From: Escherichia coli
Lineage (GTDB): Bacteria > Pseudomonadota > Gammaproteobacteria > Enterobacterales > Enterobacteriaceae
NCBI RefSeq assembly: GCF_044324875.1
Contig: NZ_CP172185.1
Reading direction: 5' to 3' (one strand)
DNA: 64,000 nt
Position 1 is the stretch's first letter, and each line of letters opens with the position of its first letter. The notes under the pieces are model-generated. The model was not told the origin of the DNA. It did no database searches and saw only the letters and a list, made by a program, of their open reading frames with translations. The position numbers and the translations under genes were made by a program. This document shows, piece after piece, positions 13,134-55,367 of the stretch.

Positions 13134-13384
13134 TTTTTATTTCTCTTTCAGGTGAATAGATCGTTTTTACTATCTTACCCCGCACGAATCATCGTTAAAA
13201 TCAGATTATAGTGTAGGAATAATTCGTTTTTTACGAACCATTGAAGGATTTGTGCCATCAGCGATGAGATGAGTTTTTGACGGCTGTAAGCGCTCACGAG
13301 TGACCCTAAGCCCTGATAATCATAGCTTAAGGTCAGGATTTCTGAGGGATTAATTAGGAAAAGTAATAATAAAATCGCACTGTG

Positions 13385-14629
13385 CTATAGCTGTTTATTC
13401 CAGAGATGCTTGAAAATATCTAATGTTGAGACAACATTGGCAGGCGACATTCGGTTTAATGAGGGTAGAAAGGGATGAGCCTCCAGAAAGTTGATAAAAC
13501 GAGTCGCGCTTGCCAACGTCGAATACCGCATTTCATTTGCTTTCTTGTTTCCTGTAAGGTTACAAACAGCCATTGAATAATCACGGGCGGAAAATGCACG
13601 CCAGACATTATTTCTCACGCCACCACTCAAAAATAACCGCGGCGGCGTATCATAATGAGTCGTTTTCTCGCCGCGTTCTTTCACAAATGAAATATGGCAC
13701 CGGCCTTGATGAATATGCTGTAAATTAGCCATCAGACAACCGCCTAATATAAAGCACTCGTGATCAAGGTAGTGTTGAATATTTATAGAATATGCTTCAG
13801 TCAGTGCTCTAACCAGTTCAAAATGGCGATACGCCGGAAGAACCGGTTTCACCAGCATCCCCGGATCGTTTTGATGTAATATCGCCCGACCATAATCAAT
13901 ATCAAATAAGGTATCACGCCGCATAGTAAGTAACTCCTTGCGTTGTACGTGATGCGCCAGTGTACCTGGAGACAAACGCTCTTCATAACTTGATGCATAT
14001 TGATAATGCGACTCTACCGCTGATGAAGAATAATTTGTTGAAATAGCGACGACTCTACCGCTTTGTTCTTCTGCGGTAACAAGACTATAAAGATAGTTGT
14101 TACTACCGTTAAACTTTACGCGAAAAGCGCGGGTAGATAGAGAAATATCAGAAGCAGAAGAATACTGGCAACTTTCTTTATAGTTTACTTCCCGGGCTAG
14201 TTTCATCAACTCACGGTTAAGCCCTGTGCTATTAAGAAGTAATAATTTACGGATATCTGCAAGTGAAGCGCCTTGATCAATCATCAATGCTAAATGTGTT
14301 CTTCGTGGCGTTGTATTTACATGATCCAGAGTGATAAAAGTTCTGGAACAATGATGACAATACATTCTCCTCTGCCCCTGAGCTGAATAGCCATACTTTT
14401 TCAGAGATGTGCTTCCGCAAGCTGAACATTGTGGAACCAACCCTCTCCATGAATGATTAACACGATTACGATAAATATTAAGAGATCGTTCAGATATCAC
14501 AGGAAACAAGTAACCGCATTCCCGACATAAAATATTTTTGCCTTGTGCAATATAATCCTGGCTATTCAACAACCCCAGGTTTTTGCATCCTGGTGTTTTG
14601 CAACAATCAACATTTACGTTGGTAAACAT
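13385..14629 (-). CDS. Cys-rich zinc-ribbon / HTH-like protein of unknown function (about 414 aa from the Met with the best ribosome-binding site)
   Basis: GGGAG ribosome-binding site before the second in-frame ATG (MFTNVNVDCC...). N-terminus carries CC-x4-C, CRECG, CSACG and CHHC pairs; the segment CSACGSTS...YCHHCSRTF followed by a helix-turn-helix-like stretch resembles the zinc-ribbon DNA-binding module of IS1 InsA-type proteins; the C-terminal ~280 aa have no family I recognise. Confidence 0.65.
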   Translation of the reverse strand: MFTNVNVDCCKTPGCKNLGLLNSQDYIAQGKNILCRECGYLFPVISERSLNIYRNRVNHSWRGLVPQCSACGSTSLKKYGYSAQGQRRMYCHHCSRTFITLDHVNTTPRRTHLALMIDQGASLADIRKLLLLNSTGLNRELMKLAREVNYKESCQYSSASDISLSTRAFRVKFNGSNNYLYSLVTAEEQSGRVVAISTNYSSSAVESHYQYASSYEERLSPGTLAHHVQRKELLTMRRDTLFDIDYGRAILHQNDPGMLVKPVLPAYRHFELVRALTEAYSINIQHYLDHECFILGGCLMANLQHIHQGRCHISFVKERGEKTTHYDTPPRLFLSGGVRNNVWRAFSARDYSMAVCNLTGNKKANEMRYSTLASATRFINFLEAHPFLPSLNRMSPANVVSTLDIFKHLWNKQL

Positions 14630-14758
14630 ATTCACTCCCTGCGAATACCCGGATATTATCGTCATATGTCAAAGAAAAGAACCTGATTCAATGTGTAACA
14701 TTGAATCAGGCGGGCATGGCCCTGAAAGGCATACATTACATATATTATGGTTATCAGA

Positions 14759-16252
14759 TTAGCCCCAGGTTACCGCTTCCGGTTTATCACCTCTGGCTTT
14801 CATTAATGAATCATTATCAATATCGGCTTTATACTTTAAGAACTTACCATACATTTGTTTTTCAATGTCTGGATTTTTACCTATCTGATTAATGGTCTCA
14901 AAACGATCGGTTTTGAGGTTGTATAGGTACTTTGGCTTATTGTTACGATCGATGATCATTTTCCAGTCACCATCACGTATCGCCCATTCGTCGGTTGGAT
15001 CATCCTGGAATGGCATGTCAATTCCGAAGATTAATGGCTTTTCACGTTTTAGCGCCTTGTTCTCAAGGACAGGAACCAACGATTCGCCATCAAAAGTCCG
15101 GTCCGTCGGTAATTTGAAGTTCATCATTTTCGCTAAAGTAGGCATCCAGTCCAGACCATAAACGGGTGTATCTGAAACCATTCCCTGTGGTAGATGTTTA
15201 CCATATTTAATAATCGCTGGAACACGAATTCCGCCTTCCCAAAGGTTATCCTTGCGACCGCGTAATCCATCCGTTTCCCCTGCCAAATTCAGCTCATACA
15301 CTTTGCGCGCTTCACGCGTTACCGGACCGTTATCACTGGTAAAAATAACAATGGTGTTATCTTCTTCACCCATCGCTTTGATTTTATCCAGCACTTTTCC
15401 AACCTGTGCATCCAGATAGCTGATATTGGCATAATATTCCCCCACACCACGCCAGGGTTTGTCTGCCCAGTCGCCATAAAATAAATCAGGATGCTGCTTC
15501 TGATACGCGCTCATATATTGTGAGTACATATCGAGGTATTTTTTGGGCGAAGCCAGGGGGCTATGCACTTCGGTAAAAGCGACATAGAGGAAGAAAGGCT
15601 TGCTGTCCTTTTTGTTATCCAGCCAGTTGACGACTTCCGAACTGACATACTCACCGCTCATTTTATCGGCTCGTGGAGTGGGTTGCCCATTACGCAACCA
15701 ACCCGTCGGATACACCATGCCAAAACGGGGACGCTCCTTCGCATTATCCAGAGTAGCGTCGGTAACAAAACCCGCCGTATTAACCAGTGAGTAATCAAAG
15801 CCCATATCTTTTGCCTGCGGCTGATCGGTGCGATCGCCGCCTGCATTCAGATGCAGCTTACCCATCATGGCCGTGTCGTACCCTTGCGCTTTGAGTAGAT
15901 TAGCAATCGTGAGTTCATTACGCCCTAATGCCACATCTTTTCCCGTTGGGATCCATGAGCGTATGCCGGTACGAAATGGCATCCGCCCTGTTAATAGTCC
16001 CGCCCGTGAAGGAGAACTTAAGGGGGCAGGTGCATAATAGTCGGTAAATTTGACGCCTTCCTGGGCAAGCCTGTCTATATTGGGCGTTTTAACGATCTGA
16101 TGTCCATATGTTGCTAAATCACCATAGCCTAAATCATCCGCCATAATGATGACTAAATTGGGTTGTTTAGTTTCGGCGGCTACGGCTGGATTAAAAGCAT
16201 TCCCTGTGCAAACTGCAAGGCCGATCAAACTGGCCATTAATGTTTTCTGCAT
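14759..16252 (-). CDS. Periplasmic Ser-type sulfatase (alkaline phosphatase superfamily)
   Basis: AAGGA ribosome-binding site before ATG (MQKTLMASLIGLAVCTGNAFNPAVAAE signal peptide); sulfatase signature P-L-S-S-P-S-R-A-G-L-L-T-G with Ser at the formylglycine position; metal-binding DDLGYGD near the N-terminus. Confidence 0.88.
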   Translation of the reverse strand: MQKTLMASLIGLAVCTGNAFNPAVAAETKQPNLVIIMADDLGYGDLATYGHQIVKTPNIDRLAQEGVKFTDYYAPAPLSSPSRAGLLTGRMPFRTGIRSWIPTGKDVALGRNELTIANLLKAQGYDTAMMGKLHLNAGGDRTDQPQAKDMGFDYSLVNTAGFVTDATLDNAKERPRFGMVYPTGWLRNGQPTPRADKMSGEYVSSEVVNWLDNKKDSKPFFLYVAFTEVHSPLASPKKYLDMYSQYMSAYQKQHPDLFYGDWADKPWRGVGEYYANISYLDAQVGKVLDKIKAMGEEDNTIVIFTSDNGPVTREARKVYELNLAGETDGLRGRKDNLWEGGIRVPAIIKYGKHLPQGMVSDTPVYGLDWMPTLAKMMNFKLPTDRTFDGESLVPVLENKALKREKPLIFGIDMPFQDDPTDEWAIRDGDWKMIIDRNNKPKYLYNLKTDRFETINQIGKNPDIEKQMYGKFLKYKADIDNDSLMKARGDKPEAVTWG

Positions 16253-16271
16253 AATTATTCCTTGATGAAAA

Positions 16272-17033
16272 TTAGAAATCATAACCAAGCATATAAATCA
16301 TTTGATCGCCAAAACCATCGTAGCCTAACTTATTATCGAAATAACGCCACGTCACACTGGCTTTCCAGCGAGGATAGAACTTCCAGGCAACTGTTAAACC
16401 GCCATTTAACCCATTCCGACCAAATTGTTGTTCCGCATAGGCATCATTTCTGTCCAGTTCTATTTCATTCCAGTTAGATAAAACAAATTTTTCGTCAAAT
16501 AACGTAAAAGGTAATACTGCTGTCCAGCCAACAACATAACCATTCCAGCCATTTGTTTGTCCATATTTGGCTGAGACGTAGTCTCCAGATTGATTATGTA
16601 ATCCAATATACGGTTTAAAAACCCCCCATGAACCATTCCAGCCGAGGTAGCCCAAACCATAAAACATATCAAGATCGTCACCCCATGAGTTATCCCATTG
16701 ACCATAGATCTTGCCAAAGAAAGTCATATTGGAGTCAAAAAGTCTGACATGTGTCATAGCAGAAACGGTATGATTACGCCCCGCTACGGCATGGTTAAGC
16801 ACATTGCTTTCATAAAATGAGTAAAACTCGGCTTCTTTAAAATTCACACCAAAGTCCGCAGTCACTTTCCATACTTCACCACGATGAGTGTTAACGAAGC
16901 CACTATTCCAGTCAGCATAACCTGCATTTATTGAGCCAAAGGAACCTTTATATTCTAATGAAGAATATGCAGGAAGGTGATAGAAAATCGTTGTCAGGGC
17001 ACACGCAATAAGAAGCCGTCTTTTGGCAGACAT
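16272..17033 (-). CDS. Small outer-membrane beta-barrel channel (Tsx/KdgM-like, 253 aa)
   Basis: Signal peptide, aromatic- and Gly-rich alternating strands, and a C-terminal ...GYDF with terminal Phe typical of outer-membrane beta-barrels; immediately upstream of the sulfatase on the same strand. Family assignment is approximate. Confidence 0.75.
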   Translation of the reverse strand: MSAKRRLLIACALTTIFYHLPAYSSLEYKGSFGSINAGYADWNSGFVNTHRGEVWKVTADFGVNFKEAEFYSFYESNVLNHAVAGRNHTVSAMTHVRLFDSNMTFFGKIYGQWDNSWGDDLDMFYGLGYLGWNGSWGVFKPYIGLHNQSGDYVSAKYGQTNGWNGYVVGWTAVLPFTLFDEKFVLSNWNEIELDRNDAYAEQQFGRNGLNGGLTVAWKFYPRWKASVTWRYFDNKLGYDGFGDQMIYMLGYDF

Positions 17034-17543
17034 ATAATATGCTCTCCATTCATTGTTTTTATGGTTCCATAGAAATCAATACATCAGATAATTCATTTTG
17101 ATTAAGAACGACTCAGAAAGTATATTTAAAGGTGAATGGCAAAGCGTGATGGAGATCGCAGATTACTTTTACCCCCGGGTGTGGAGGTATCGTGTTTCAA
17201 AAAGTGTGTCTATTTTAAATATCACTCATTGATTTATAGACATTTTTTCCTTATAAAAAAACACTAAATTCTGTACAAGAATTATTTTGTATCTTCTACT
17301 ACTTTCTCCAGTAATAACTCACCTTTCAGGCATAACTTAAATCTGCTTGTTCATAATCTCAATTTTTGTAAATGAAAAGGCACATAAGAGTTAAAATAAA
17401 CAATGATCTAAAGATTAATTACGCAAAAATGCGAGGCGTCTTCAAGATTAGAATCGATAAAACAGAATGGGTTAAAGAGAGCGATATAATAGCGGCGGGT
17501 GCTTGAGGCTGTCTGTCTCAGGCATTAGCTGAACGGCAGATAG

Positions 17544-43853: not shown

Positions 43854-44188
43854 AAGCGCATCCTCTAAGTGTAAATACATCAATGCAGCGTCATGCCGCG
43901 TAATAGATTTATGCTAACCAGTCATTGCCGTTTACGCCACGTTACGGACACTTTTTTACTTTTATACTCTAAATAATTCGAGTTGCAGGAAGGCGATAAG
44001 TGAGTGAGTCCCCAGGAGCTTACAGAAGTAAGTGACTGGGGTGAGCGAGCGTAAGCGCAGCACATGCAACTTGAAGTATGACGAGTATACTGCGAGGGTG
44101 ATCGACCGGCTGGGATTAGATAAGGAAACAGGCTACACTTCGCCTTTGAAAACTCATCATCACGATAAACATAGAGGCGAAGTCCAAC

Positions 44189-45856
44189 GTGGCTCAATTC
44201 GTTTATACCATGCATCGTGTCGGCAAAGTTGTTCCGCCGAAACGTCATATTTTGAAAAACATCTCTCTGAGTTTCTTCCCTGGGGCAAAAATTGGTGTCC
44301 TGGGTCTGAACGGCGCGGGTAAGTCCACCCTGCTGCGCATTATGGCGGGCATTGATAAAGACATCGAAGGCGAAGCGCGTCCGCAACCGGATATCAAGAT
44401 TGGTTATCTGCCGCAGGAACCGCAGCTGAACCCGGAACACACCGTGCGTGAGTCCATTGAAGAAGCGGTTTCAGAAGTGGTTAACGCCCTGAAACGCCTG
44501 GATGAAGTGTATGCGCTGTACGCCGATCCGGATGCCGATTTTGACAAGCTGGCCGCTGAACAAGGCCGTCTGGAAGAGATCATTCAGGCTCACGACGGTC
44601 ACAACCTGAACGTTCAGCTGGAGCGTGCGGCGGATGCGCTGCGTCTGCCGGACTGGGACGCGAAAATCGCTAACCTCTCCGGTGGTGAGCGTCGTCGCGT
44701 GGCGTTGTGCCGCCTGCTGCTGGAAAAACCAGACATGCTGCTGCTCGACGAACCGACCAACCACCTGGATGCCGAATCCGTGGCCTGGCTGGAACGCTTC
44801 CTGCACGACTTCGAAGGCACCGTTGTGGCGATTACCCACGACCGTTACTTCCTCGATAACGTTGCGGGCTGGATCCTCGAACTGGACCGCGGTGAAGGTA
44901 TTCCGTGGGAAGGTAACTACTCCTCCTGGCTGGAGCAGAAAGATCAGCGCCTGGCGCAGGAAGCTTCACAAGAAGCGGCGCGTCGTAAGTCGATCGAGAA
45001 AGAGCTGGAGTGGGTACGTCAGGGAACTAAAGGCCGCCAGTCGAAAGGTAAAGCACGTCTGGCACGCTTTGAAGAGCTGAACAGCACCGAATACCAGAAA
45101 CGTAACGAAACCAACGAACTGTTTATTCCACCTGGACCGCGTCTGGGCGATAAAGTGCTGGAAGTCAGCAACCTGCGTAAATCCTACGGCGATCGCCTGC
45201 TGATTGATGACCTGAGCTTCTCGATCCCGAAAGGGGCGATCGTCGGGATCATCGGTCCGAACGGCGCGGGTAAATCGACCCTGTTCCGTATGATCTCCGG
45301 TCAGGAACAGCCGGACAGCGGCACCATCACTTTGGGTGAAACGGTGAAACTGGCATCGGTTGATCAGTTCCGTGACTCAATGGATAACAGCAAAACCGTT
45401 TGGGAAGAAGTTTCCGGCGGGCTGGATATTATGAAGATCGGCAACACCGAGATGCCAAGCCGCGCCTACGTTGGCCGCTTTAACTTTAAAGGGGTTGATC
45501 AGGGTAAACGCGTTGGTGAACTTTCCGGTGGTGAGCGCGGTCGTCTGCATCTGGCGAAGCTGCTGCAAGTTGGCGGCAACATGCTGCTGCTCGACGAACC
45601 AACCAACGACCTGGATATCGAAACCCTGCGCGCGCTGGAAAACGCTCTGCTGGAGTTCCCGGGCTGCGCGATGGTTATCTCGCACGACCGTTGGTTCCTC
45701 GACCGTATCGCCACGCACATCCTGGACTACCAGGATGAAGGTAAAGTCGAGTTCTTCGAAGGTAACTTTACCGAGTACGAAGAATACAAGAAACGCACGC
45801 TGGGCGCAGACGCGCTGGAGCCGAAGCGTATCAAGTACAAGCGTATTGCGAAGTAA
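44189..45856 (+). CDS. ettA: Energy-dependent translational throttle ABC-F protein EttA
   Basis: 555-aa ORF MAQFVYTMHRVGKVVPPKRHILKNISLSFFPGAKIGVLGLNGAGKSTLLRIMAG with two ABC ATPase domains. Confidence 0.96.
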   Translation: MAQFVYTMHRVGKVVPPKRHILKNISLSFFPGAKIGVLGLNGAGKSTLLRIMAGIDKDIEGEARPQPDIKIGYLPQEPQLNPEHTVRESIEEAVSEVVNALKRLDEVYALYADPDADFDKLAAEQGRLEEIIQAHDGHNLNVQLERAADALRLPDWDAKIANLSGGERRRVALCRLLLEKPDMLLLDEPTNHLDAESVAWLERFLHDFEGTVVAITHDRYFLDNVAGWILELDRGEGIPWEGNYSSWLEQKDQRLAQEASQEAARRKSIEKELEWVRQGTKGRQSKGKARLARFEELNSTEYQKRNETNELFIPPGPRLGDKVLEVSNLRKSYGDRLLIDDLSFSIPKGAIVGIIGPNGAGKSTLFRMISGQEQPDSGTITLGETVKLASVDQFRDSMDNSKTVWEEVSGGLDIMKIGNTEMPSRAYVGRFNFKGVDQGKRVGELSGGERGRLHLAKLLQVGGNMLLLDEPTNDLDIETLRALENALLEFPGCAMVISHDRWFLDRIATHILDYQDEGKVEFFEGNFTEYEEYKKRTLGADALEPKRIKYKRIAK

Positions 45857-45863
45857 TGCGTAA

Positions 45864-45900
45864 AATGCCGGATGCGGCGCGCCAGCATCGCATCCGGTAT
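45864..45900. repeat. REP-like palindromic unit downstream of ettA
   Basis: tgccggatgcggcgcgccagcatcgcatccggta, an imperfect GC-rich palindrome of the REP type. Confidence 0.5.
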
Positions 45901-46011
45901 TAGTTAAATGATTAGTCCCCGGAAAAAAGCAAAATTTTCTTTAAGCGTATTAGCTCAGATGCGGACTGACATCTCAAATCAAGCGGGAACTCATGGTTCC
46001 CGCTTAACGTT

Positions 46012-46899
46012 TTATTCACCGCGCAGGATCTGGCGGAAATGGGAAACCAGCGGACGTTGGTTGGCTTTATGCCAGGCTGCCCATAATTGCGTTGAATAAT
46101 TCATCCACGGCAATTCACGTAATACCACCCCTTCCGGCGCATTATGACGCAGACTATTTTGAATTAAGGCCAGACCTAATCCCGCAGCGACCAAACCTAA
46201 TGCCGTGAGGGGTTCACCCGCTTCCAGGCGAATATCAGGATTAAACCCGGCGTTAACACAGGCGGCGACAAAATGATCGCGAGAATGCGCATCGTCGTTA
46301 TGAATCACCGCAATCCACTGCTCATCGCCAAGTTGTGACGCGACAAGGTTTTCCTCCTGCGCCAGAGGATGATTTTGCGGTAAGGCCAACAACATTCGAT
46401 CATCCAGAACCTGAATATATTCCAGATCCTGCTCGCTGTCGGTGGGCGGCGTATCGACCAGAGAAAAATCGAGACTGCGCTGACGCAGGCCTTCAATCTG
46501 GGTAGCCGGTGGTTGGCTGTAAAGAGCGATATGCACATTCGGACGCGATACACGTAACGTACGTAGCGCCGTAGAAAGCACACCGGAATGCATGGCGTTT
46601 TCGATATAGCCAATACACAAGCCACCATCTTCCCCCCGTCCCAGGCGTTTGCCTAACGACTCCAGGCGGTTGGCGTGTGTCAGCAACGAACGTGTTTCGG
46701 CAAGGAATGTCTGTCCATCAGCGGTCAGGCGAATGCGCTGCTGATTACGCTCAAACAGCGTCAGTCCCAGCCGTTCTTCCAGTTGTGCAATCTGGCGGCT
46801 CAGCGGCGATTGCGAGATATGTAATCGCTCGGCTGCGCGTCCCACGTGCTCTTCTTCTGCGACCACCACGAAGTACTTCAGTTGGCGTAAATCAATCAT
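46012..46899 (-). CDS. LysR-family transcriptional regulator
   Basis: MIDLRQLKYFVVVAEEEHVGRAAERLHISQSPLSRQIAQLEERLGLTLFERNQQRIRLT N-terminal HTH, followed by an effector-binding domain; divergent from the aldo-keto reductase gene. Confidence 0.85.
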   Translation of the reverse strand: MIDLRQLKYFVVVAEEEHVGRAAERLHISQSPLSRQIAQLEERLGLTLFERNQQRIRLTADGQTFLAETRSLLTHANRLESLGKRLGRGEDGGLCIGYIENAMHSGVLSTALRTLRVSRPNVHIALYSQPPATQIEGLRQRSLDFSLVDTPPTDSEQDLEYIQVLDDRMLLALPQNHPLAQEENLVASQLGDEQWIAVIHNDDAHSRDHFVAACVNAGFNPDIRLEAGEPLTALGLVAAGLGLALIQNSLRHNAPEGVVLRELPWMNYSTQLWAAWHKANQRPLVSHFRQILRGE

Positions 46900-47031
46900 G
46901 TTAGACCTCAAAGGACTTAAGTCAGACGAATTATGTCCTATCAAGTCACAACCTCGCAAGGTATTGTGATCCACGTCACAGGGCAATAGCAAAAAACGCC
47001 CGAACCCAAACCGAATAATTGAGGACATCTT

Positions 47032-48042
47032 ATGAGCATCAAAAATTTACTTCCCGGCAAAATTGGCTTAGGCGGCGCACCACTCGGCAACATGTTCCGT
47101 GCCATTCCGGAAGAAGAGGCCCACGCCACCGTGAGCGAAGCCTGGAACCTGGGTGTGCGTTACTTTGATACCGCGCCGCTGTACGGCTCTGGCCTTTCTG
47201 AAATCCGCATGGGTGAAGCGCTGTCTCAGTATCCACGCGATGAATACGTTCTGAGTAGCAAAGTCGGTCGCATCGTGCTGGACGAAATGGAAGATCCGGC
47301 AAAACGGGATTTCGGTGAAAAAGGTGGCCTGTTCGAACACGGCCTGAAAAACAAAATTCTGAATGACTACTCTGCTGACGCCACGCTGCGCTCGATTGAA
47401 GACAGCCTGAAACGCCTGAAAACAGATCGTCTGGATATTGTCTGGATCCACGACCCGGCGCAGGACTTCTACGGTGACAGCTGGCTGGAGCAGTTCAACA
47501 TAGCCCGTACCGGTGCGTTTCGTGCGCTGACGCGTTTGCGTGACGAAGGTGTGATTAAAGCCTGGGGACTGGGTGTCAACCGCGTCGAACCTTGCGAACT
47601 GACGCTGGCGCTGGACGAACCGAAGCCGGATGCGTTCCTGCTGGCGGGGCGTTATTCCCTGCTGGATCACGAACGTGCGCTGCAACGCCTGATGCCAGAA
47701 GCACTGGAACAGAACGTGGATATTGTTGTGGGCGGTCCGTACAGCTCTGGCGTACTGGCAGGCGGCGAGCACTTTGAATATCAGAAAGCTTCTGCGGCCA
47801 TCCAGCAGAAAGTGGCGCAAATTAACGCCATTGCCACACGTTTCAATGTGAACGTTAAAGCGGCTGCGCTGCAGTTCGCGCTGGCAAACCCGGCCGTTGC
47901 AGCGGTTATTCCTGGCTCCAGCCGTCCTGGCCGTATGGCAGAAGATCTGGCTGCACTGAATGCGCCTGTTCCGGCTGAATTCTGGGCAGAAATGCGCCGT
48001 CAAAATCTGGTTGCGGAAAACGCTCCGCTGCCGACCCGTTAA
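47032..48042 (+). CDS. Aldo-keto reductase family oxidoreductase (336 aa)
   Basis: N-terminal GLGGAPLGNMF...EAWNLGVRYFDTAPLYGSGLSE pattern typical of the AKR fold. Confidence 0.85.
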   Translation: MSIKNLLPGKIGLGGAPLGNMFRAIPEEEAHATVSEAWNLGVRYFDTAPLYGSGLSEIRMGEALSQYPRDEYVLSSKVGRIVLDEMEDPAKRDFGEKGGLFEHGLKNKILNDYSADATLRSIEDSLKRLKTDRLDIVWIHDPAQDFYGDSWLEQFNIARTGAFRALTRLRDEGVIKAWGLGVNRVEPCELTLALDEPKPDAFLLAGRYSLLDHERALQRLMPEALEQNVDIVVGGPYSSGVLAGGEHFEYQKASAAIQQKVAQINAIATRFNVNVKAAALQFALANPAVAAVIPGSSRPGRMAEDLAALNAPVPAEFWAEMRRQNLVAENAPLPTR

Positions 48043-48061
48043 TCAACCTGGTGAGAAAACG

Positions 48062-48858
48062 ATGAAACTGGATCTGACAGGTAAAGTCGCGGTGGTCAGC
48101 GGCTCAACCTCCGGCATTGGGCAGGGTATCGCCGCCGGACTGGCAAAAGCAGGCGCAACGGTGGTTGTCGTCGGCCGTAAACAGCGCGGCGTTGATGATG
48201 CCATGGCTGCGATTGCGGCACAAACTCCCACGGCGTCACTGCGCGGCGTGGTGGCCGATCTCAGCACCGAAGACGGCGTGGCTGCGCTGATCGCTGCAGT
48301 CCCAACGGCTGATGTGCTGGTCAATAATCTGGGCATTTTTAACGATAAAGATTTCTTTAGCGTTCCGGATGATGAGTGGATGCACTTCTATAACGTCAAC
48401 GTCCTCTCCGGCGTTCGTCTGGCGCGTCACTATGCGCCAGGCATGACGGAACAGGGCTGGGGCGGATTATCTTTGTCTCGTCTGAATCCGGCGTGGCAAT
48501 TCCTGGCGACATGATCAACTACGGCGTCACCAAAGCCGCGAATCTGGCGGTTTCTCATGGTCTGGCGAAACGACTGGCAGGGACCGGTGTGACCGTCAAC
48601 GCCATTCTGCCAGGGCCAACCTTTACCGATGGCCTGAAAGAGATGCTGGCGGATGCCGCTGCACAATCGGGACGCAGTGCGCGTGAACAGGCCGATGAGT
48701 TTGTTAAAACCTCGCGTCCGAGCTCCATCATCCAGCGTGCGGCGGATGTGGAAGAAGTGGCGAATCTGGCGGTTTATCTCGCGTCACCGCTTTCCTCGGC
48801 AACCACAGGGGCAGCCCTGCGCGTCGATGGCGGCGTCGTCGACACCCTGACAATGTAA
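48062..48858 (+). pseudogene. Short-chain dehydrogenase/reductase (SDR) interrupted by a frameshift near 48461-48466
   Basis: N-terminal half (MKLDLTGKVAVVSGSTSGIGQGIAAG..., Rossmann TGxxxGIG motif) is in one frame and ends prematurely; the catalytic half (...RIIFVSSESGVAIPGDMINYGVTKAA... with YxxxK) continues in another frame; the nucleotide context ggctggggcgga looks like a single-base indel. Confidence 0.7.
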
Positions 48859-48883
48859 CCCTATAAATTAAGAGAAAATTATC

Positions 48884-49300
48884 ATGGCTAAAACAACTGT
48901 ATCGATCGAAATTCCGGCTTCTGCCGACGCCGTATGGCAATTGATGGGCGGCTTTGATGCGCTGCCAGACTGGCTGCCGTTCATCCCGAAAAGCGTAGTG
49001 ACAGAAGGCGGTCGCGTTCGTTCGCTGACAACCTCTGACGGCGGCACTGTGGTTGAACGTCTGGAAGCGTTTGATAACCGTCAACGCAGTTATACCTATT
49101 CCATTATTCAGGCACCGTTCCCGGTGGTGGATTACCTCTCCACCATTACCGTTCATGAAACCGCCGACAGCCAGGTTTCCCGTGTGGAATGGTTCGGTGA
49201 ATTCACCCCGGTGAATGTGACGAACGAAGAGGCCGAAGCGCTGTTTACCGGCATCTATCGGGATGGTCTCAAGGCGCTGAAGGACAACTTTGTTGCCTGA
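48884..49300 (+). CDS. SRPBCC (Bet v1 / polyketide-cyclase-like) ligand-binding protein, 138 aa
   Basis: Size and the AVWQLMGGFDALPDWLP pattern resemble SRPBCC-fold proteins; assigned on composition and pattern only. Confidence 0.6.
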   Translation: MAKTTVSIEIPASADAVWQLMGGFDALPDWLPFIPKSVVTEGGRVRSLTTSDGGTVVERLEAFDNRQRSYTYSIIQAPFPVVDYLSTITVHETADSQVSRVEWFGEFTPVNVTNEEAEALFTGIYRDGLKALKDNFVA

Positions 49301-49457
49301 TGCGATCGACAGGCGTCGGAACGTCCGGCGTCTGATTATTAACAAAAACAGAATAGTCTATTGCCATTTGTATCATTTATGTTATCAGGCAGTAGGCGTA
49401 TTCTCTCCCCATCGCGTTAATAAACGCCAAACAATTAAGACACTCTGGAATATAAAC

Positions 49458-49670
49458 ATGAAAACGATCATCGCAATTTTTACGGCTTCTCTTTTCTCTG
49501 TCGCGGCGTTTAACGCATCGGCGCAAAGCGTGACAGCAACCGGTACAACACTGGATTCCGCTGAAGCGGTTATTGCGCAGAAAGCGAAAGAGATGAACGC
49601 CTCTGAATACAAAATTACCAGCGCTCGCATGGGCAATACCGTCACCATGAGTGCCGAACTGTACAAATAA
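49458..49670 (+). CDS. Small periplasmic DUF1471 (YdgH/BhsA/McbA-like) protein, 70 aa
   Basis: Signal peptide MKTIIAIFTASLFSVAAFNASA, then a ~50-aa domain ending in ...SAELYK, typical of this stress-associated family. Confidence 0.7.
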   Translation: MKTIIAIFTASLFSVAAFNASAQSVTATGTTLDSAEAVIAQKAKEMNASEYKITSARMGNTVTMSAELYK

Positions 49671-49718
49671 CCGCACGAGAGACCCATTACGTAATTTGCT
49701 AAATATGCGCTGAATGCG

Positions 49719-49990
49719 TTGCCATTAATAAACCGTATTGTAATGCCACCGATGACGCGTTCCCGTGCGGGTGACGTTGCGACTGACATAATGGCGGCCT
49801 ATTACGCGCAGCGCGCCAGTGCTGGACTTTTCATTAGCGAAGGTACGCAAATCAGCAGAAGCGCTGCGCATAATTTTCCACGGCACGCTGATTTACTCCG
49901 GTAAAGACACCAAAGCGCGCGCCGAACAGGCGCTGGCTAACGGCTAGTCGGATCTGATTGGATTTGGTCGTCCGTATAGTGCCAAAAGCG
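49719..49990 (+). pseudogene. Remnant of an old-yellow-enzyme (NemA-like NADH:flavin oxidoreductase) gene
   Basis: MPLINRIVMPPMTRSRA...DIMAAYYAQRASAGLFISEGTQIS matches the OYE N-terminal FMN-binding region but stops after about 60 codons; a downstream out-of-frame stretch (...DLIGFGRPY...) resembles the OYE C-terminus, consistent with an internal deletion. Confidence 0.55.
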
Positions 49991-50097
49991 GAAGTTGGTA
50001 GTTTCAGCCTATGTTGATAAACGGGGAGCCGGTCAGCACGTAAAGAGATTTTTTTGTACTGCTATGGCCCGATCAAAAATCGATTGAGCCGAATGTG

Positions 50098-50469
50098 CTA
50101 GCTATCTCCGAAGATAATTTTTTCGAGCTCCTGCAAGTCCTGCTGTGATTGCTCGTTAAGGTTAGCCTCTAACTTGTCGTACCATGTAAGCAGTTTCTTG
50201 CCAAGTGGTGTCAAAACCGAGCCTCCACCTTTACTGCCGCCTGTTGATGTAATTACCACCGGCTTACCTATGCCTTTATTGAGTGTATCAATCAGGAGCC
50301 ACGCCCTTTTATAGGGGATTCCCAGATCTTTTGCGGCAGCTGAAAGGGAATGAAACCCATCTATAGCTCGTAAAAGATCGATTTTCCCCGGTCCCAGCGA
50401 GATATTGTCATTAATGTAGATTCGGGGTCTGACCAAAATAAAATCAAACATAAGCGTTTTTTTATTCAT
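50098..50469 (-). CDS. ModE N-terminal-domain-like winged-helix regulator (about 120 aa)
   Basis: ...LSAAAKDLGIPYKRAWLLIDTLNKGIGKPVVITSTGGSKGGGSVLTPLGKKLL resembles the ModE N-terminal DNA-binding domain; start codon is ambiguous (Met at 50487, 50469 or 50451). Confidence 0.6.
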   Translation of the reverse strand: MNKKTLMFDFILVRPRIYINDNISLGPGKIDLLRAIDGFHSLSAAAKDLGIPYKRAWLLIDTLNKGIGKPVVITSTGGSKGGGSVLTPLGKKLLTWYDKLEANLNEQSQQDLQELEKIIFGDS

Positions 50470-50494
50470 TCTGAGAACTCCGTGCAAAGTATTT

Positions 50495-50914
50495 TTATCG
50501 GGTGTGTTTGAAAGTTTTGATGGCAGAAATAAGAAGGATCACACCAAGTAAAGTCATAAGGGCTTTAAGTGGGAACAAGCCGACCATAAGTCCACCAATT
50601 GCTGCACCAATTACTGAACCAATAACCATCCATACAAACAGTGTCCTTTCTTGCTTCAGAATCAGGAAAGCATCTGCATTTATATAACGGGAAAAGCCAA
50701 CAATCATTGTTGGCAGGCTAATCATCAGTGAAAGACTTCCGGCCAGTTTAATATCTTCCCCGAAAAGGATAACGATTGTGGGGATAAGAAGCTCTCCGCC
50801 AGCCACTCCGAGCAATGCTGCGACTATCCCGATAAAGCCCCCTGATACCACCCCCACAATAATCATGGCAAGGCCAGGTTGAAATAACCCGCCTGAAATA
50901 CTGTGCAACGGCAT
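50495..50914 (-). CDS. DUF81 (TauE/SafE sulfite-exporter family) permease, C-terminal half (139 aa)
   Basis: Four predicted transmembrane helices with the GVAGGELLIPTIV motif; starts at the codon immediately after the TAG that ends the upstream half, in the same frame. Confidence 0.65.
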   Translation of the reverse strand: MPLHSISGGLFQPGLAMIIVGVVSGGFIGIVAALLGVAGGELLIPTIVILFGEDIKLAGSLSLMISLPTMIVGFSRYINADAFLILKQERTLFVWMVIGSVIGAAIGGLMVGLFPLKALMTLLGVILLISAIKTFKHTR

Positions 50915-51301
50915 CTAGGCTTCAGAGAGCATGACAAAAGACAGTAAAACAAGCAGGATCAGAATGATTCTGTCCAGCCAGATTCTGGACATCTTTATGG
51001 CACGACCTGCGGCCCACCATGCTCCAATAAGACTTCCTGCCAGCAAATTTATGACAATATCAAGATGCGCCACCAACTGATCAAAAGATATAGATTTTGT
51101 TCGGAAAATTAAAGCAATAGCCACCACGGCGAGACTCATTGCTTTGTTAAAAATGACGGCTTCCAGAGAAGGGATTTTGAAACTACCGATCAGTACGGGA
51201 AGGCGAAATTCAGCCCCTCCGAGGCCAATCAACCCACCTAAAGCCCCTATTACCGCGCCTGAGAAAAAACCTTTACCATTCCTGTTTGAAACTGACGACA
51301 T
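50915..51301 (-). CDS. DUF81 (TauE/SafE family) permease, N-terminal half (128 aa)
   Basis: Four predicted transmembrane helices with the GLGGAEFRLPVLI motif; ends at a TAG that is immediately followed in frame by the ATG of the second half. Confidence 0.65.
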   Translation of the reverse strand: MSSVSNRNGKGFFSGAVIGALGGLIGLGGAEFRLPVLIGSFKIPSLEAVIFNKAMSLAVVAIALIFRTKSISFDQLVAHLDIVINLLAGSLIGAWWAAGRAIKMSRIWLDRIILILLVLLSFVMLSEA

Positions 51302-51714
51302 GCGTTCCTCTCTAATTCGTTATGTCTTTTTTGACATAACGACAAGCATAGCATTGCAGAACAGGCGTCTGGTAGTTGCTTGTAAAGACGAGGATTGATC
51401 CAGGTTAAAATTTATTCTATTAACCTGCTCTCCGTTGTTTAACACACCACGATTTATGTGATGCTTTCATGAGAAATTAAAACAACTAAGAACTTCCGCT
51501 TCTCGCTCGAAGCGGACTGTCAGATTTGATTGCATTCTGGCTACGCAACTGGTCGGTTGGAGTATGAAGTTGCTCACGAATAGCCTTAGCATCCGCAATT
51601 TCGTAGCGGGTCACCCGTGCAGGTTCTTTCTAATCTCAACAGCCTCTTCCAGAGAGTTTTTCAACTCATCAAAAAACTCAATTTATACCTCGCCTTTGAG
51701 CCGTTTCATCACGG

Positions 51715-52947
51715 TTATCTCTGCTCCCCCATCATCTCCCGCACAAGTTCCACGCAGCGCAGGAAACGGCTGTCATAATCGTCCTCTTCAACACGCACGA
51801 ATTCGATATTGTTCTCTTCCAGCATCTCCACCAGCAAGTTCTGGAACTCTTTGCGATCCACCGAACTACCGAGGCTGCGTAAACCATCCGCCACCCACGG
51901 GGTGTTGTTCTCCAGCAAGATAACCAGATCAAAACGGTATTCATCAATCAGCGCCTGCACGAACGGATGCTCACGCCCTTCGTACTTTTTGCAGAACGCC
52001 TGGGTAGTGACAAAATCAGTGTCGATAAACGCCACTTTATTGGCGTATTTCACTGCAAAATCAATATATTGCGCGTGTCCCAGCGCGATTTTATCGTAGT
52101 CAGAATACTGCAATGCGATCTCATCACCGCCGAGGTGTGAAAAGACATAATCGCGACCATATTCCCACGCACTGGTGGTATTGAAGATATTGGCAAGTTT
52201 GTTTACCAGGGTGGATTTACCGCTCGACTCGCCGCCAAGGATCGCCACGGTACGCACAAAAAACGGCTTCACTTCAGTGGGGATATATTCCCAGTAGCGG
52301 AACGGGTTTTCGCGGATCTGCGCACCGCTGATACTCATAAAGGTGCGTTTCGGATCGACCAGCACCGTTTCGATCCCCAGATGTTCCATATACTGTGGCG
52401 CATCGGCTTCTTCCGAGGTGTAGATCAGGTCCGGCTGGATCCCCTTTTCAGCCATAAACTTTTTGATGCCATTGCTCCACACATCCCAGCCGTGCGGATA
52501 TGGCTCCATGCCCTCTTCGTTGAAAGCATGAATACGGATATTTTTCTGATATTTAAAGGTTTGCAATAACCAGCGCAGACGATCCGGCACGGTGGGCTGC
52601 TGCGACATGGCGCTGTCTTCAAACAACGCACGGTCACGGGTATCGTCAAAGCCCATAATGATATGCAGCTCGTCAACCTGGCTACAGGCGCGCTGGATAA
52701 GGTAGATATGTCCGGTATGTAGCGGGTAGAACTTACCGAATACGACACCAATGGTTTTCTTCTGCCGGGGAAATTCAAGCCCCAAAAAACGGTGCAACGC
52801 CTCCAGCTTTTGCGCGCTGGGGCTTTTAATTTTGGCATTCAGTAACTGGCTTAAATACCCTTTGGTCATACCGCTGGCATCAGCTACCTGCTGTAGCGTG
52901 CAGCCCTGTTGCTTGATGGCAGTTTTCAGGTAATCAAATGACGACAT
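51715..52947 (-). CDS. nadR: Trifunctional NAD biosynthesis/regulator protein NadR
   Basis: MSSFDYLKTAIKQQGCTLQQVADASGMTKGYLSQLLNAK HTH, followed by NMN adenylyltransferase and ribosylnicotinamide kinase (P-loop GGESSGKST) domains. Confidence 0.95.
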   Translation of the reverse strand: MSSFDYLKTAIKQQGCTLQQVADASGMTKGYLSQLLNAKIKSPSAQKLEALHRFLGLEFPRQKKTIGVVFGKFYPLHTGHIYLIQRACSQVDELHIIMGFDDTRDRALFEDSAMSQQPTVPDRLRWLLQTFKYQKNIRIHAFNEEGMEPYPHGWDVWSNGIKKFMAEKGIQPDLIYTSEEADAPQYMEHLGIETVLVDPKRTFMSISGAQIRENPFRYWEYIPTEVKPFFVRTVAILGGESSGKSTLVNKLANIFNTTSAWEYGRDYVFSHLGGDEIALQYSDYDKIALGHAQYIDFAVKYANKVAFIDTDFVTTQAFCKKYEGREHPFVQALIDEYRFDLVILLENNTPWVADGLRSLGSSVDRKEFQNLLVEMLEENNIEFVRVEEDDYDSRFLRCVELVREMMGEQR

Positions 52948-52967
52948 ATCTCCCTCCGTATCTCTCA

Positions 52968-54350
52968 TTATAAGTCGTCGAACACGCTAAGCGCGTCGGA
53001 GAGTTTTTTAACGCCAAAAATCTGCATCCCTTCCGGCGCTTTTTTCGGCACGTTAGCCGCCGGAACAATCGCCCGCCGAAAACCGTGTTTCGCCGCTTCA
53101 GAGATTCGTTCCTGGCCGCTGGGCACCGGGCGGATCTCCCCTGCCAGCCCGACTTCACCAAACACCACCAGATCCTGCGGTAGCGGTCTATCACGCAGGC
53201 TGGAAACCATCGCCAGCAGTAACGCTAAGTCGGCACTGGTTTCCGTCACCTTCACGCCGCCGACCACGTTAACAAATACATCCTGATCGGCCATTTGCAA
53301 CCCACCGTGACGGTGCAGCACCGCCAGCAGGATTGCCAGACGGTTTTGCTCCAGCCCTACTGCGACGCGGCGTGGATTCGCCATCATCGAGTGATCGACC
53401 AATGCCTGGATCTCCACCAGCAGTGGACGCGTTCCTTCCCATACCACCATCACTGAGCTACCGGAGGTCACTTCATCACCGCGGCTTAAAAAGATGGCGG
53501 AAGGGTTGCTAACTTCACGCAGCCCCTGTTCGGTCATCGCGAAGACGCCCAGCTCATTCACCGCGCCGAAGCGGTTTTTATGGCTGCGTAAGGTGCGAAA
53601 ACGGGAGTCGGCATCGCCATCCAGAAGCACCGAACAGTCGATACAGTGTTCCAGCACTTTAGGGCCAGCCAGCGAGCCATCTTTGGTTACGTGCCCAACC
53701 ATGACAATCGCCACACCGCGCGTTTTGGCGAAGCGCGTCAGATAAGCCGCCGTTTCACGCACCTGCGCCACGCTGCCAGGCGATGACTGAACATCCGCCA
53801 TATGCATCACCTGGATCGAGTCAATTACCATCAGCTTCGGTTGCTCTTCTTCGGCAATCAGGCAGATTTGTTCGATGCTGGTTTCAGACAGCATATTGAG
53901 ATTGTCAGTCGGCAGGCCAAGGCGATGAGCGCGCATTGCCACCTGTTGCAGCGACTCTTCGCCGGTGACATACAGCGTTTTCATCTGCTGGGCCAGTTTG
54001 CACAGCGTTTGCAACAGCAGCGTGGATTTCCCCGCGCCTGGGTTACCGCCAATCAGAATGGCGCTTCCCGGCACCACCCCGCCGCCTAATACGCGGTCGA
54101 ACTCTTTAAATCCGGTGGAAAAACGCGGCAGCTCTTCAAGGCTGATGTCGGAAAGTTTCTGGACTTTTGCCACCCCGGCGCTACCGGCATAGCCACTGAG
54201 ACGCTCGTTACGCGCCACCGTTGGCGACGCTGCAAGACGCACCTCGGTGATGGTGTTCCAGGCATGACAGGCGCTGCACTGCCCCTGCCAGCGCGGATAA
54301 TCGGCCCCGCATTCATTACAAACAAAGGCGCGTTTTGGAGCTTTTGCCAC
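52968..54350 (-). CDS. radA: DNA repair protein RadA (Sms)
   Basis: GTG start (VAKAPKRAFVCNECGADYPRWQGQCSACHAWNTITE zinc finger), RecA-like P-loop GGNPGAGKSTLLLQ and a Lon-like C-terminus. Confidence 0.95.
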   Translation of the reverse strand: MAKAPKRAFVCNECGADYPRWQGQCSACHAWNTITEVRLAASPTVARNERLSGYAGSAGVAKVQKLSDISLEELPRFSTGFKEFDRVLGGGVVPGSAILIGGNPGAGKSTLLLQTLCKLAQQMKTLYVTGEESLQQVAMRAHRLGLPTDNLNMLSETSIEQICLIAEEEQPKLMVIDSIQVMHMADVQSSPGSVAQVRETAAYLTRFAKTRGVAIVMVGHVTKDGSLAGPKVLEHCIDCSVLLDGDADSRFRTLRSHKNRFGAVNELGVFAMTEQGLREVSNPSAIFLSRGDEVTSGSSVMVVWEGTRPLLVEIQALVDHSMMANPRRVAVGLEQNRLAILLAVLHRHGGLQMADQDVFVNVVGGVKVTETSADLALLLAMVSSLRDRPLPQDLVVFGEVGLAGEIRPVPSGQERISEAAKHGFRRAIVPAANVPKKAPEGMQIFGVKKLSDALSVFDDL

Positions 54351-54398
54351 GGTGTACCTCGTTAATGCTGTGCCGCCCGCAGGATGACGGGCGAGCAA

Positions 54399-55367
54399 TT
54401 ACTTCTGATTCAGGCTGCCAGAGAGGATGCAGAATACCCCCATCAGGTCAGCGTGACGGATGGTGACTTCCGTCTTTTCATTCACTTTTGGCTTGGCATG
54501 GTAGGCAATCCCCAGCCCTGCCGCTTTGATCATCGGCAGGTCATTGGCTCCATCACCAATCGCCACGGTCTGCGCCAGCGGGATTTCATACTCCTGCGCG
54601 AGGCGAGTCAGAGTTTTCGCTTTGTACTGCGCGTCTACGATGTCGCCGATCACATTGCCGGTAAATTTACCGTCCATGATCTCCAGTTCATTGGCTACCA
54701 CGGCTGTCAGGCGCAGCTTGTCGCGCAGGTATTCAGCAAAGAAAGTAAAGCCACCGGAGGCAATCGCCACTTTCCAGCCCAGCGTTTCCAGCTTGAGTAC
54801 CAGTTGCGTTAAGCCTGGCATCAGCGGCAGATTTTCACGCACCTGTTGCAGAATATTGGCGTCAGCGCCTTTCAGCGTCGCCACGCGGCTGCGCAGGCTG
54901 GCGGTAAAATCGAGTTCGCCGCGCATCGCCCGTTCGGTTACCTCCGCCACCATCTCGCCCGTTCCGGCCAGTTTGGCAATTTCATCAATACATTCAATCT
55001 GGATGGCGGTGGAATCCATGTCCATCACCAGCAAACCCGGCGTGCGCAGGTGCGGGATTTTCCCCAGCGGCGCGACATCCAGCTGCGCTTCGTGAGCCAG
55101 GCGCGTAGCCCGCGCGGTGAGTGAACCTGCCAGACGAATCACCTGATAATCTTCCACGCACCAGGCGGCAACAATCACCATCGCCGCGCCCAGTTTGCTC
55201 TGGTATTGGGTCAGACGTTGTTTATCCAGCCCACGACCATACAGCAGCCAGCCGCTACGACCTGCGTGGTAATCCAGTGGCATCACTTCATCACCACTTA
55301 ATGAAAGAGGCAGCCCCGGCCATAAAGAGACATCTTCAGGCAGGTCGCACCAGGTAATGTTAGGCAT
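54399..55367 (-). CDS. serB: Phosphoserine phosphatase
   Basis: MPNITWCDLPEDVSLWPGLPLSLSGDEVMPLDYHAGRSGWLLYGRG... with the HAD motif DMDSTAI; 322 aa from the internal Met. Confidence 0.95.
   Translation of the reverse strand: MPNITWCDLPEDVSLWPGLPLSLSGDEVMPLDYHAGRSGWLLYGRGLDKQRLTQYQSKLGAAMVIVAAWCVEDYQVIRLAGSLTARATRLAHEAQLDVAPLGKIPHLRTPGLLVMDMDSTAIQIECIDEIAKLAGTGEMVAEVTERAMRGELDFTASLRSRVATLKGADANILQQVRENLPLMPGLTQLVLKLETLGWKVAIASGGFTFFAEYLRDKLRLTAVVANELEIMDGKFTGNVIGDIVDAQYKAKTLTRLAQEYEIPLAQTVAIGDGANDLPMIKAAGLGIAYHAKPKVNEKTEVTIRHADLMGVFCILSGSLNQK

Follow-up and report, generated by a model that had tools for sequence, protein, structure and literature searches.

Bacterial accessory genes are known to become frameshift pseudogenes by slippage in a homopolymer. 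In such cases a single base is deleted from a mononucleotide run, the gene differs by that base from its intact orthologues and survives as two adjacent open reading frame (ORF) fragments of one protein family, and it is dispensable, with other decayed genes near it in the same accessory island. Two overlapping frames also jointly code one protein in programmed −1 frameshifting, as in dnaX and the transposases of IS elements, and in the poly-G/C contingency loci of Neisseria, Haemophilus and Campylobacter a coding G tract of strain-variable length switches the reading frame. Here we describe a short-chain dehydrogenase/reductase (SDR) gene that is split between two frames in Escherichia coli. 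The window, that is, the whole stretch of DNA that was analysed, comprises 64,000 nucleotides of contig NZ_CP172185.1 (assembly GCF_044324875.1). In comparison with homopolymer-slippage frameshift pseudogenes nothing essential differs; what is additional here is that the change from five to four G residues (G5 to G4) recurs on several haplotypes. The features concerned are as follows.

46012..46899, minus strand: LysR-family regulator, divergent from the cassette; intact (tblastn against PCN033, 295/295 amino acids, no stops; Pfam HTH_1 and LysR_substrate).
47032..48042, plus strand: aldo/keto reductase (AKR), cassette gene 1; intact, 336 amino acids (Pfam Aldo_ket_red, E = 8e-45).
ATG 48062 to TAA 48856-48858, plus strand: classical SDR gene as a whole, with the frame change at GGGG 48459-48462.
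48062..48514, plus strand: SDR N-terminal fragment ORF of 150 amino acids; 134 authentic and 16 out-of-frame residues, then TGA 48512-48514.
48459..48462, plus strand: the lesion, GGGG against GGGGG in intact alleles, in which TGG GGG CGG codes for Trp133-Gly134-Arg135.
48463..48858, plus strand: SDR C-terminal part, authentic residues 135-265, in the −1 frame; holds Ser140/141, Tyr154 and Lys158.
48511..48858, plus strand: callable C-terminal fragment ORF of 115 amino acids (MINYGVTK...), which lacks residues 135-150, the catalytic Ser included.
48884..49300, plus strand: SRPBCC/polyketide-cyclase-like protein, cassette gene 3; intact (Pfam Polyketide_cyc2, E = 1.7e-30).
49458..49670, plus strand: small DUF1471 (YdgH/BhsA/McbA-like) protein downstream of the cassette; intact (PF07338; tblastn 70/70 amino acids).
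49695-49986, plus strand: remnant of an Old Yellow Enzyme (OYE)/Oxidored_FMN gene; only about residues 3-61 and 275-330 of the 366-residue Yokenella orthologue are recognisable.
50495-51301, minus strand: TauE/SafE sulfite-exporter family gene with an in-frame TAG at 50915-50917 (TGG to TAG, codon 129).
51630-51671: nadS remnant next to nadR, with deletions of 4, 6 and 1 bases relative to PCN033, in which it is already an incomplete pseudogene.

Direct reading of the window gave the string ggctggggcggattatctttg at 48455-48475. Translation from ATG 48062 opens with MKLDL, runs as MKLDLTGKVAVVSGSTSGIGQ...GMTEQGWG and leaves the authentic frame after Gly134; what follows is the aberrant 16-residue tail GLSLSRLNPAWQFLAT, which ends at the TGA. 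The authentic continuation, RIIFVSSESGVAIPGDMINYGVTKAAN...VDTLTM, lies in the −1 frame, from CGG 48463 to the TAA at 48856-48858. The stop codon of the N-terminal fragment overlaps the start codon of the C-terminal fragment as ATGA (48511-48514), and the gene calls for the two SDR fragments on contig L007 likewise overlap by 4 nt. Such an ATGA overlap is an arrangement typical of translational coupling; here it is a chance product of the frameshift.

Addition of one G gave a protein of 265 residues that has an identical counterpart among the public intact E. coli alleles (P0031) and is 100% identical to the representative of the 90% identity cluster (P0032). The repaired protein matched Pfam adh_short_C2 (PF13561; E = 2e-44, 152.3 bits, gathering cut-off 27) and adh_short (PF00106; E = 8e-38, 130.3 bits, gathering cut-off 26.6) as well as, among solved structures, most closely PDB entries 8g9m (E = 1.5e-137) and 3t4x, both of which are named only as SDR-family oxidoreductases, and an NCBIfam search with it returned no model at or above cut-off. 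It carries all the hallmarks of classical SDRs in 265 residues: the cofactor motifs SGSTSGIG (residues 13-20) and NNLG (residues 88-91), the catalytic Ser140/141, and Tyr154-x3-Lys158. Both cofactor motifs fall within the N-terminal fragment, and the catalytic residues are coded only in the −1 frame downstream of 48462. Unlike in classical SDRs, the window therefore has the cofactor-binding and the catalytic halves in different frames, and as the gene is encoded there the catalytic Ser and YxxxK are not in the same polypeptide as the cofactor-binding fold. Judged from its coding content, the DNA descends from an SDR gene, yet in its encoded form it should not yield a functional member of the classical family. 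These results agree with the earlier note, which had described a single-base frameshift splitting one SDR oxidoreductase and had the position, the direction and the repaired length of 265 residues right; its account of the split stands throughout except for the exact start codon, which is 48062-48064.

In four intact E. coli alleles aligned to the window, GGGGG stands in place of the GGGG at 48459-48462. Of 5,426 RefSeq complete E. coli genomes, 482 carry the locus. A G5 35-mer used as a positive control matched all 482 of these, each with one 265-residue ORF, while the G4 query, a 34-mer centred on the run that seeds only in genomes with the same allele, matched 0 RefSeq complete E. coli genomes. 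The exact 150-residue N-terminal fragment is present in a public protein collection (P0001), the exact 115-residue C-terminal product was found on 62 contigs, and intact SDR alleles were found on well over 2,000 contigs. The G4 allele is called rare because none of the 482 finished RefSeq genomes carries it; a crude estimate from the contig counts suggests that it makes up roughly 1% of contigs.

The SDR gene is the middle gene of a LysR-regulated AKR-SDR-SRPBCC cassette. The same cassette was found in Klebsiella, Enterobacter, Ewingella, Yokenella and Pseudomonas, and the SDR is always a single 265-residue ORF there. The E. coli copy of the cassette belongs to an accessory island flanked by ettA and nadR. 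Only two separate parts of the OYE gene in this island are recognisable, which points to a deletion of its central portion; in other E. coli records the remnant is annotated as an incomplete hypothetical protein. Another kind of damage was observed in a single sample, on contig L010 (1395-1500; SRR24907259), where a clean 1,868-bp deletion equivalent to window positions 46587-48454 takes part of the LysR gene, the whole AKR gene and the N-terminal half of the SDR gene. It stops 4 nt short of the G run, which is still G5 there, and its junction shows 2 nt of microhomology. The Chi sequence is GCTGGTGG; the string GCTGGGGG at the lesion, near the end of the L010 deletion, is one mismatch away from it, and this was taken as coincidence, the junction having only the 2-nt microhomology.

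Elsewhere in the window, the only large insertion relative to PCN033 is one of about 4 kb (13371-17416) between mokC/hokC and nhaA, which encodes a 509-residue sulfatase-like protein, a 253-residue probable outer-membrane protein and a 426-residue protein, the sulfatase and outer-membrane labels having been assigned by eye. No IS element was seen in the 64-kb window, and Shigella is accordingly an unlikely source of this DNA. The product of an espX1 effector homologue (4540-5958) is 89% identical to the PCN033 protein, and the neighbouring core proteins are 98-100% identical.

The age of the lesion was estimated from close relatives. Over 46916-55301 (8.4 kb), contig L023 differs from the window by one single-nucleotide polymorphism (SNP) and the base in the G run, and contig L024 by three SNPs and the same base; in both, the SDR is intact with 265 residues. 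Two draft assemblies (GCA_044147985.1 and GCA_044682655.1) are nearly identical to the window. Since the near-isogenic G5 relatives differ by only 1-3 SNPs and the run base, the frameshift is considered recent. The TAG in the TauE gene, which splits that gene into ORFs of 128 and 139 amino acids, is common to a large clade: its N-terminal fragment was found in 150 index blocks and on at least 24 contigs. The stop was found in L023, in L024 and in 22 similar places, the DNA having been read for L023 and L024 only. The TauE-stop relatives that were checked have an intact SDR, implying that the TauE stop predates the SDR frameshift. On this comparison, the SDR frameshift is a single base lost recently, within a sub-lineage of the clade in which the TauE stop was already present. 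Core genes in the window (52000-64000) are at most 98.5% identical to those of any of the 5,426 RefSeq complete E. coli genomes, and the lineage of the window seems to be absent from the finished-genome set.

The G4 run was also found on at least five other haplotypes (L008, L012, L013 [GenBank CP027763.1], L015 and L016), and L014 has G3. In the 2.27 kb of AKR-SDR-SRPBCC, the other G4 haplotypes differ by 25-32 SNPs from the window and by 22-45 from each other; L016 (G4) has 0 SNPs relative to L009 (G5) and 6 relative to L017 (G5). At the variable sites closest to the run, 48406 and 48483, G4 occurs together with either allele. For one original mutation to have reached these backgrounds through recombination, conversion tracts no longer than about 80 bp would have been required many times over, so recurrent slippage is the simpler explanation. 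Exact G4 N-terminal fragments were found on 21, 3, 2, 2 and 1 contigs, as would be expected under clonal inheritance. The SDR gene contains just two homopolymers of five or more bases, a T5 run and the G5 run; that the latter is its sole G/C run of this size explains why unrelated E. coli lineages acquired the same lesion. In E. coli, indel rates climb exponentially with the length of the homopolymer run (PMC8510543). Loss from G5 to G4 on at least five other haplotypes, together with one G3, marks the run as a slippage hot spot. The codon for Gly134 is GGG in E. coli and GGA or GGC in Klebsiella, Enterobacter, Ewingella, Pseudomonas and Yokenella; from this comparison, the G5 run is specific to E. 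coli, an accident of codon choice. One further record, P0060 (NCBI, 5.39-Mb contig), is a 265-residue product with a G4-type frameshift and a second shift back about 50 codons further on, which would be either a compensating mutation or the product of a noisy long-read assembly.

These observations were weighed against two other explanations that the earlier note had raised for the split. If the four Gs were a sequencing or assembly error, the strain would truly have G5 and one G would have been lost in base calling or consensus. A homopolymer is a classic site of indel miscalls, an allele found in 0 of 482 finished genomes resembles an occasional homopolymer miscall, and some other broken public copies are plainly noisy, L009 and L017 having several scattered indels. 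However, a separate Logan assembly of ERR1512459 contains a contig that is 100.000% identical to window positions 44060-58514 (14,455 bp), G4 included; this contig was reported in four samples and encodes the exact 150-residue N-terminal fragment. The window may derive from ERR1512459 or from one of the three other samples, in which case the match is an independent assembly and not independent sequencing, and the evidence for G4 consists of assemblies, not reads. The near-isogenic assemblies read G5 at the same position, indicating that the site is not systematically miscalled, and the clonal pattern of the G4 haplotype on 21 contigs also argues against error. In addition, comparison with the collinear PCN033 genome gave 14 small indels, of which 11 are intergenic, two are in the nadS remnant and one is in the SDR gene. 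The last is the only one inside an otherwise intact coding sequence (CDS); the other 13 in the 64 kb avoid intact genes, a pattern of selection and not of random error. When 58 PCN033 CDSs were searched by tblastn, 55 were intact, SDR and TauE were broken, and ileS runs off the end of the window. The window is not an error-prone assembly, and an error at the lesion is very unlikely. In programmed recoding, the second explanation, −1 ribosomal frameshifting or transcriptional slippage at the G run would restore a full-length SDR. Read with a −1 shift at its GGC, U GGG GCG G would give exactly G-W-G-R, and re-pairing of tRNA-Gly on GGG would be possible in principle. In contrast to dnaX and the IS element transposases, however, the locus has neither a slippery heptamer nor a stimulatory structure: no X_XXY_YYZ was found in any frame between 48380 and 48514, and the 98 nt downstream (48463-48560) have a folding energy of −25.2 kcal/mol, where the shuffled controls average −25.5 (z = 0.10) and 97 of 200 shuffles fold at least as well. 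Transcriptional slippage requires long A/T runs, not a G4. The split is also unconserved. It was found in none of the orthologues, every genus examined having a single ORF of about 265 residues (five orthologous loci); among the 120 homologues listed, nearly all have about 265 residues and the shorter ones are partial entries, and the most distant homologue examined was that of a Pseudomonas cluster with 72-74% identity. All 482 finished genomes and the near-isogenic relatives have the in-frame G5. Programmed frameshifting is rejected on these sequence grounds, its probability being close to nil. A single full-length SDR would be of about 28 kDa, and the stretch spanned by peptides diagnostic of the unsplit protein is GWGRIIFVSSESG. 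The prfB +1 frameshift site is UAU CUU UGA; UAUCUUUG, just after the run, was considered as a prfB-like site and discarded, as its CUU is not in the zero frame, there is no stop there, and a −1 shift is needed, not +1. Of the possibilities put forward in the earlier note, that of a genuine pseudogene is the one favoured by the G4 in the ERR1512459 assembly and the G5 in near-isogenic relatives; the refutation named in that note, resequencing with an extra base that restores a 265-residue ORF, is not borne out by the available public data.

The recurrence of the lesion raises two further explanations. If the locus were phase-variable, G5 (on) and G4 (off) would be reversible and the window would be in the off state. 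Tract length is indeed polymorphic between strains, with G5 in the majority, G4 on at least six haplotypes and G3 once, and a coding G tract of strain-variable length that switches the frame is what the contingency loci of Neisseria, Haemophilus and Campylobacter have. The homopolymer tracts that give high-frequency switching at contingency loci are typically of about 7-8 bases or more, however, and the tract here, G5 when intact and G4 in the window, is far shorter than such long repeats. Nor is the tract conserved outside E. coli, the GGA or GGC at Gly134 in the five other genera leaving only G4 in frame; 482 of 482 finished genomes have G5, and nothing pointed to reversion. An unconserved tract of five bases is unlikely to be truly phase-variable, and we give very little credence to the window being an off state. 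Alternatively, the repeated loss from G5 to G4 or G3, taken with the island's other lesions (the TauE stop, the OYE remnant and the 1.9-kb deletion in one sample), could reflect repeated selection, in some niches, against the SDR step of the LysR-AKR-SDR-SRPBCC carbonyl-reduction cassette instead of neutral decay at a hot spot, which we regard as improbable. The GGG codon specific to E. coli would then be an accidental evolutionary 'fuse'. The reading that we prefer is a genuine, recent loss of function by G5 to G4 slippage in an accessory SDR gene, to which we assign a probability of roughly 90%.

In the preferred reading, replication slippage would have removed one G from the G5 (TGG GGG CGG) of the gene. 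The 150-residue product would keep the NAD(P)-binding Rossmann motifs and have none of the catalytic Ser, Tyr and Lys, and ribosomes reinitiating at the ATGA overlap could make the 115-residue C-terminal fragment. As neither product contains residues 135-150 and with them Ser140/141, the split SDR gene is not expected to give an active enzyme. About 370 nt, from the stop of the N-terminal fragment to the SRPBCC start, would be untranslated unless the C-terminal fragment is made, and this untranslated stretch may reduce expression of the SRPBCC gene through polarity.

Taken together, the frameshift that turned the SDR gene into a pseudogene is real, recent and of an ordinary kind. It fell at a homopolymer hot spot, and the island around it is decaying, with the TauE stop and the OYE and nadS remnants as its other lesions. 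What is mildly notable is the repeated independent loss at a G5 run specific to E. coli. For annotation, 48062-48514 and 48511-48858 are to be treated as one frameshifted SDR-family pseudogene, not as two genes and not as a candidate for recoding. Two wider points follow, neither of them surprising to a specialist. Near-isogenic public assemblies can date lesions, as with the TauE stop, which is older and clade-wide, and the SDR frameshift, which is younger and confined to the sub-lineage; and a synonymous codon choice, here GGG after TGG, can make a mutational hot spot that is specific to a lineage.
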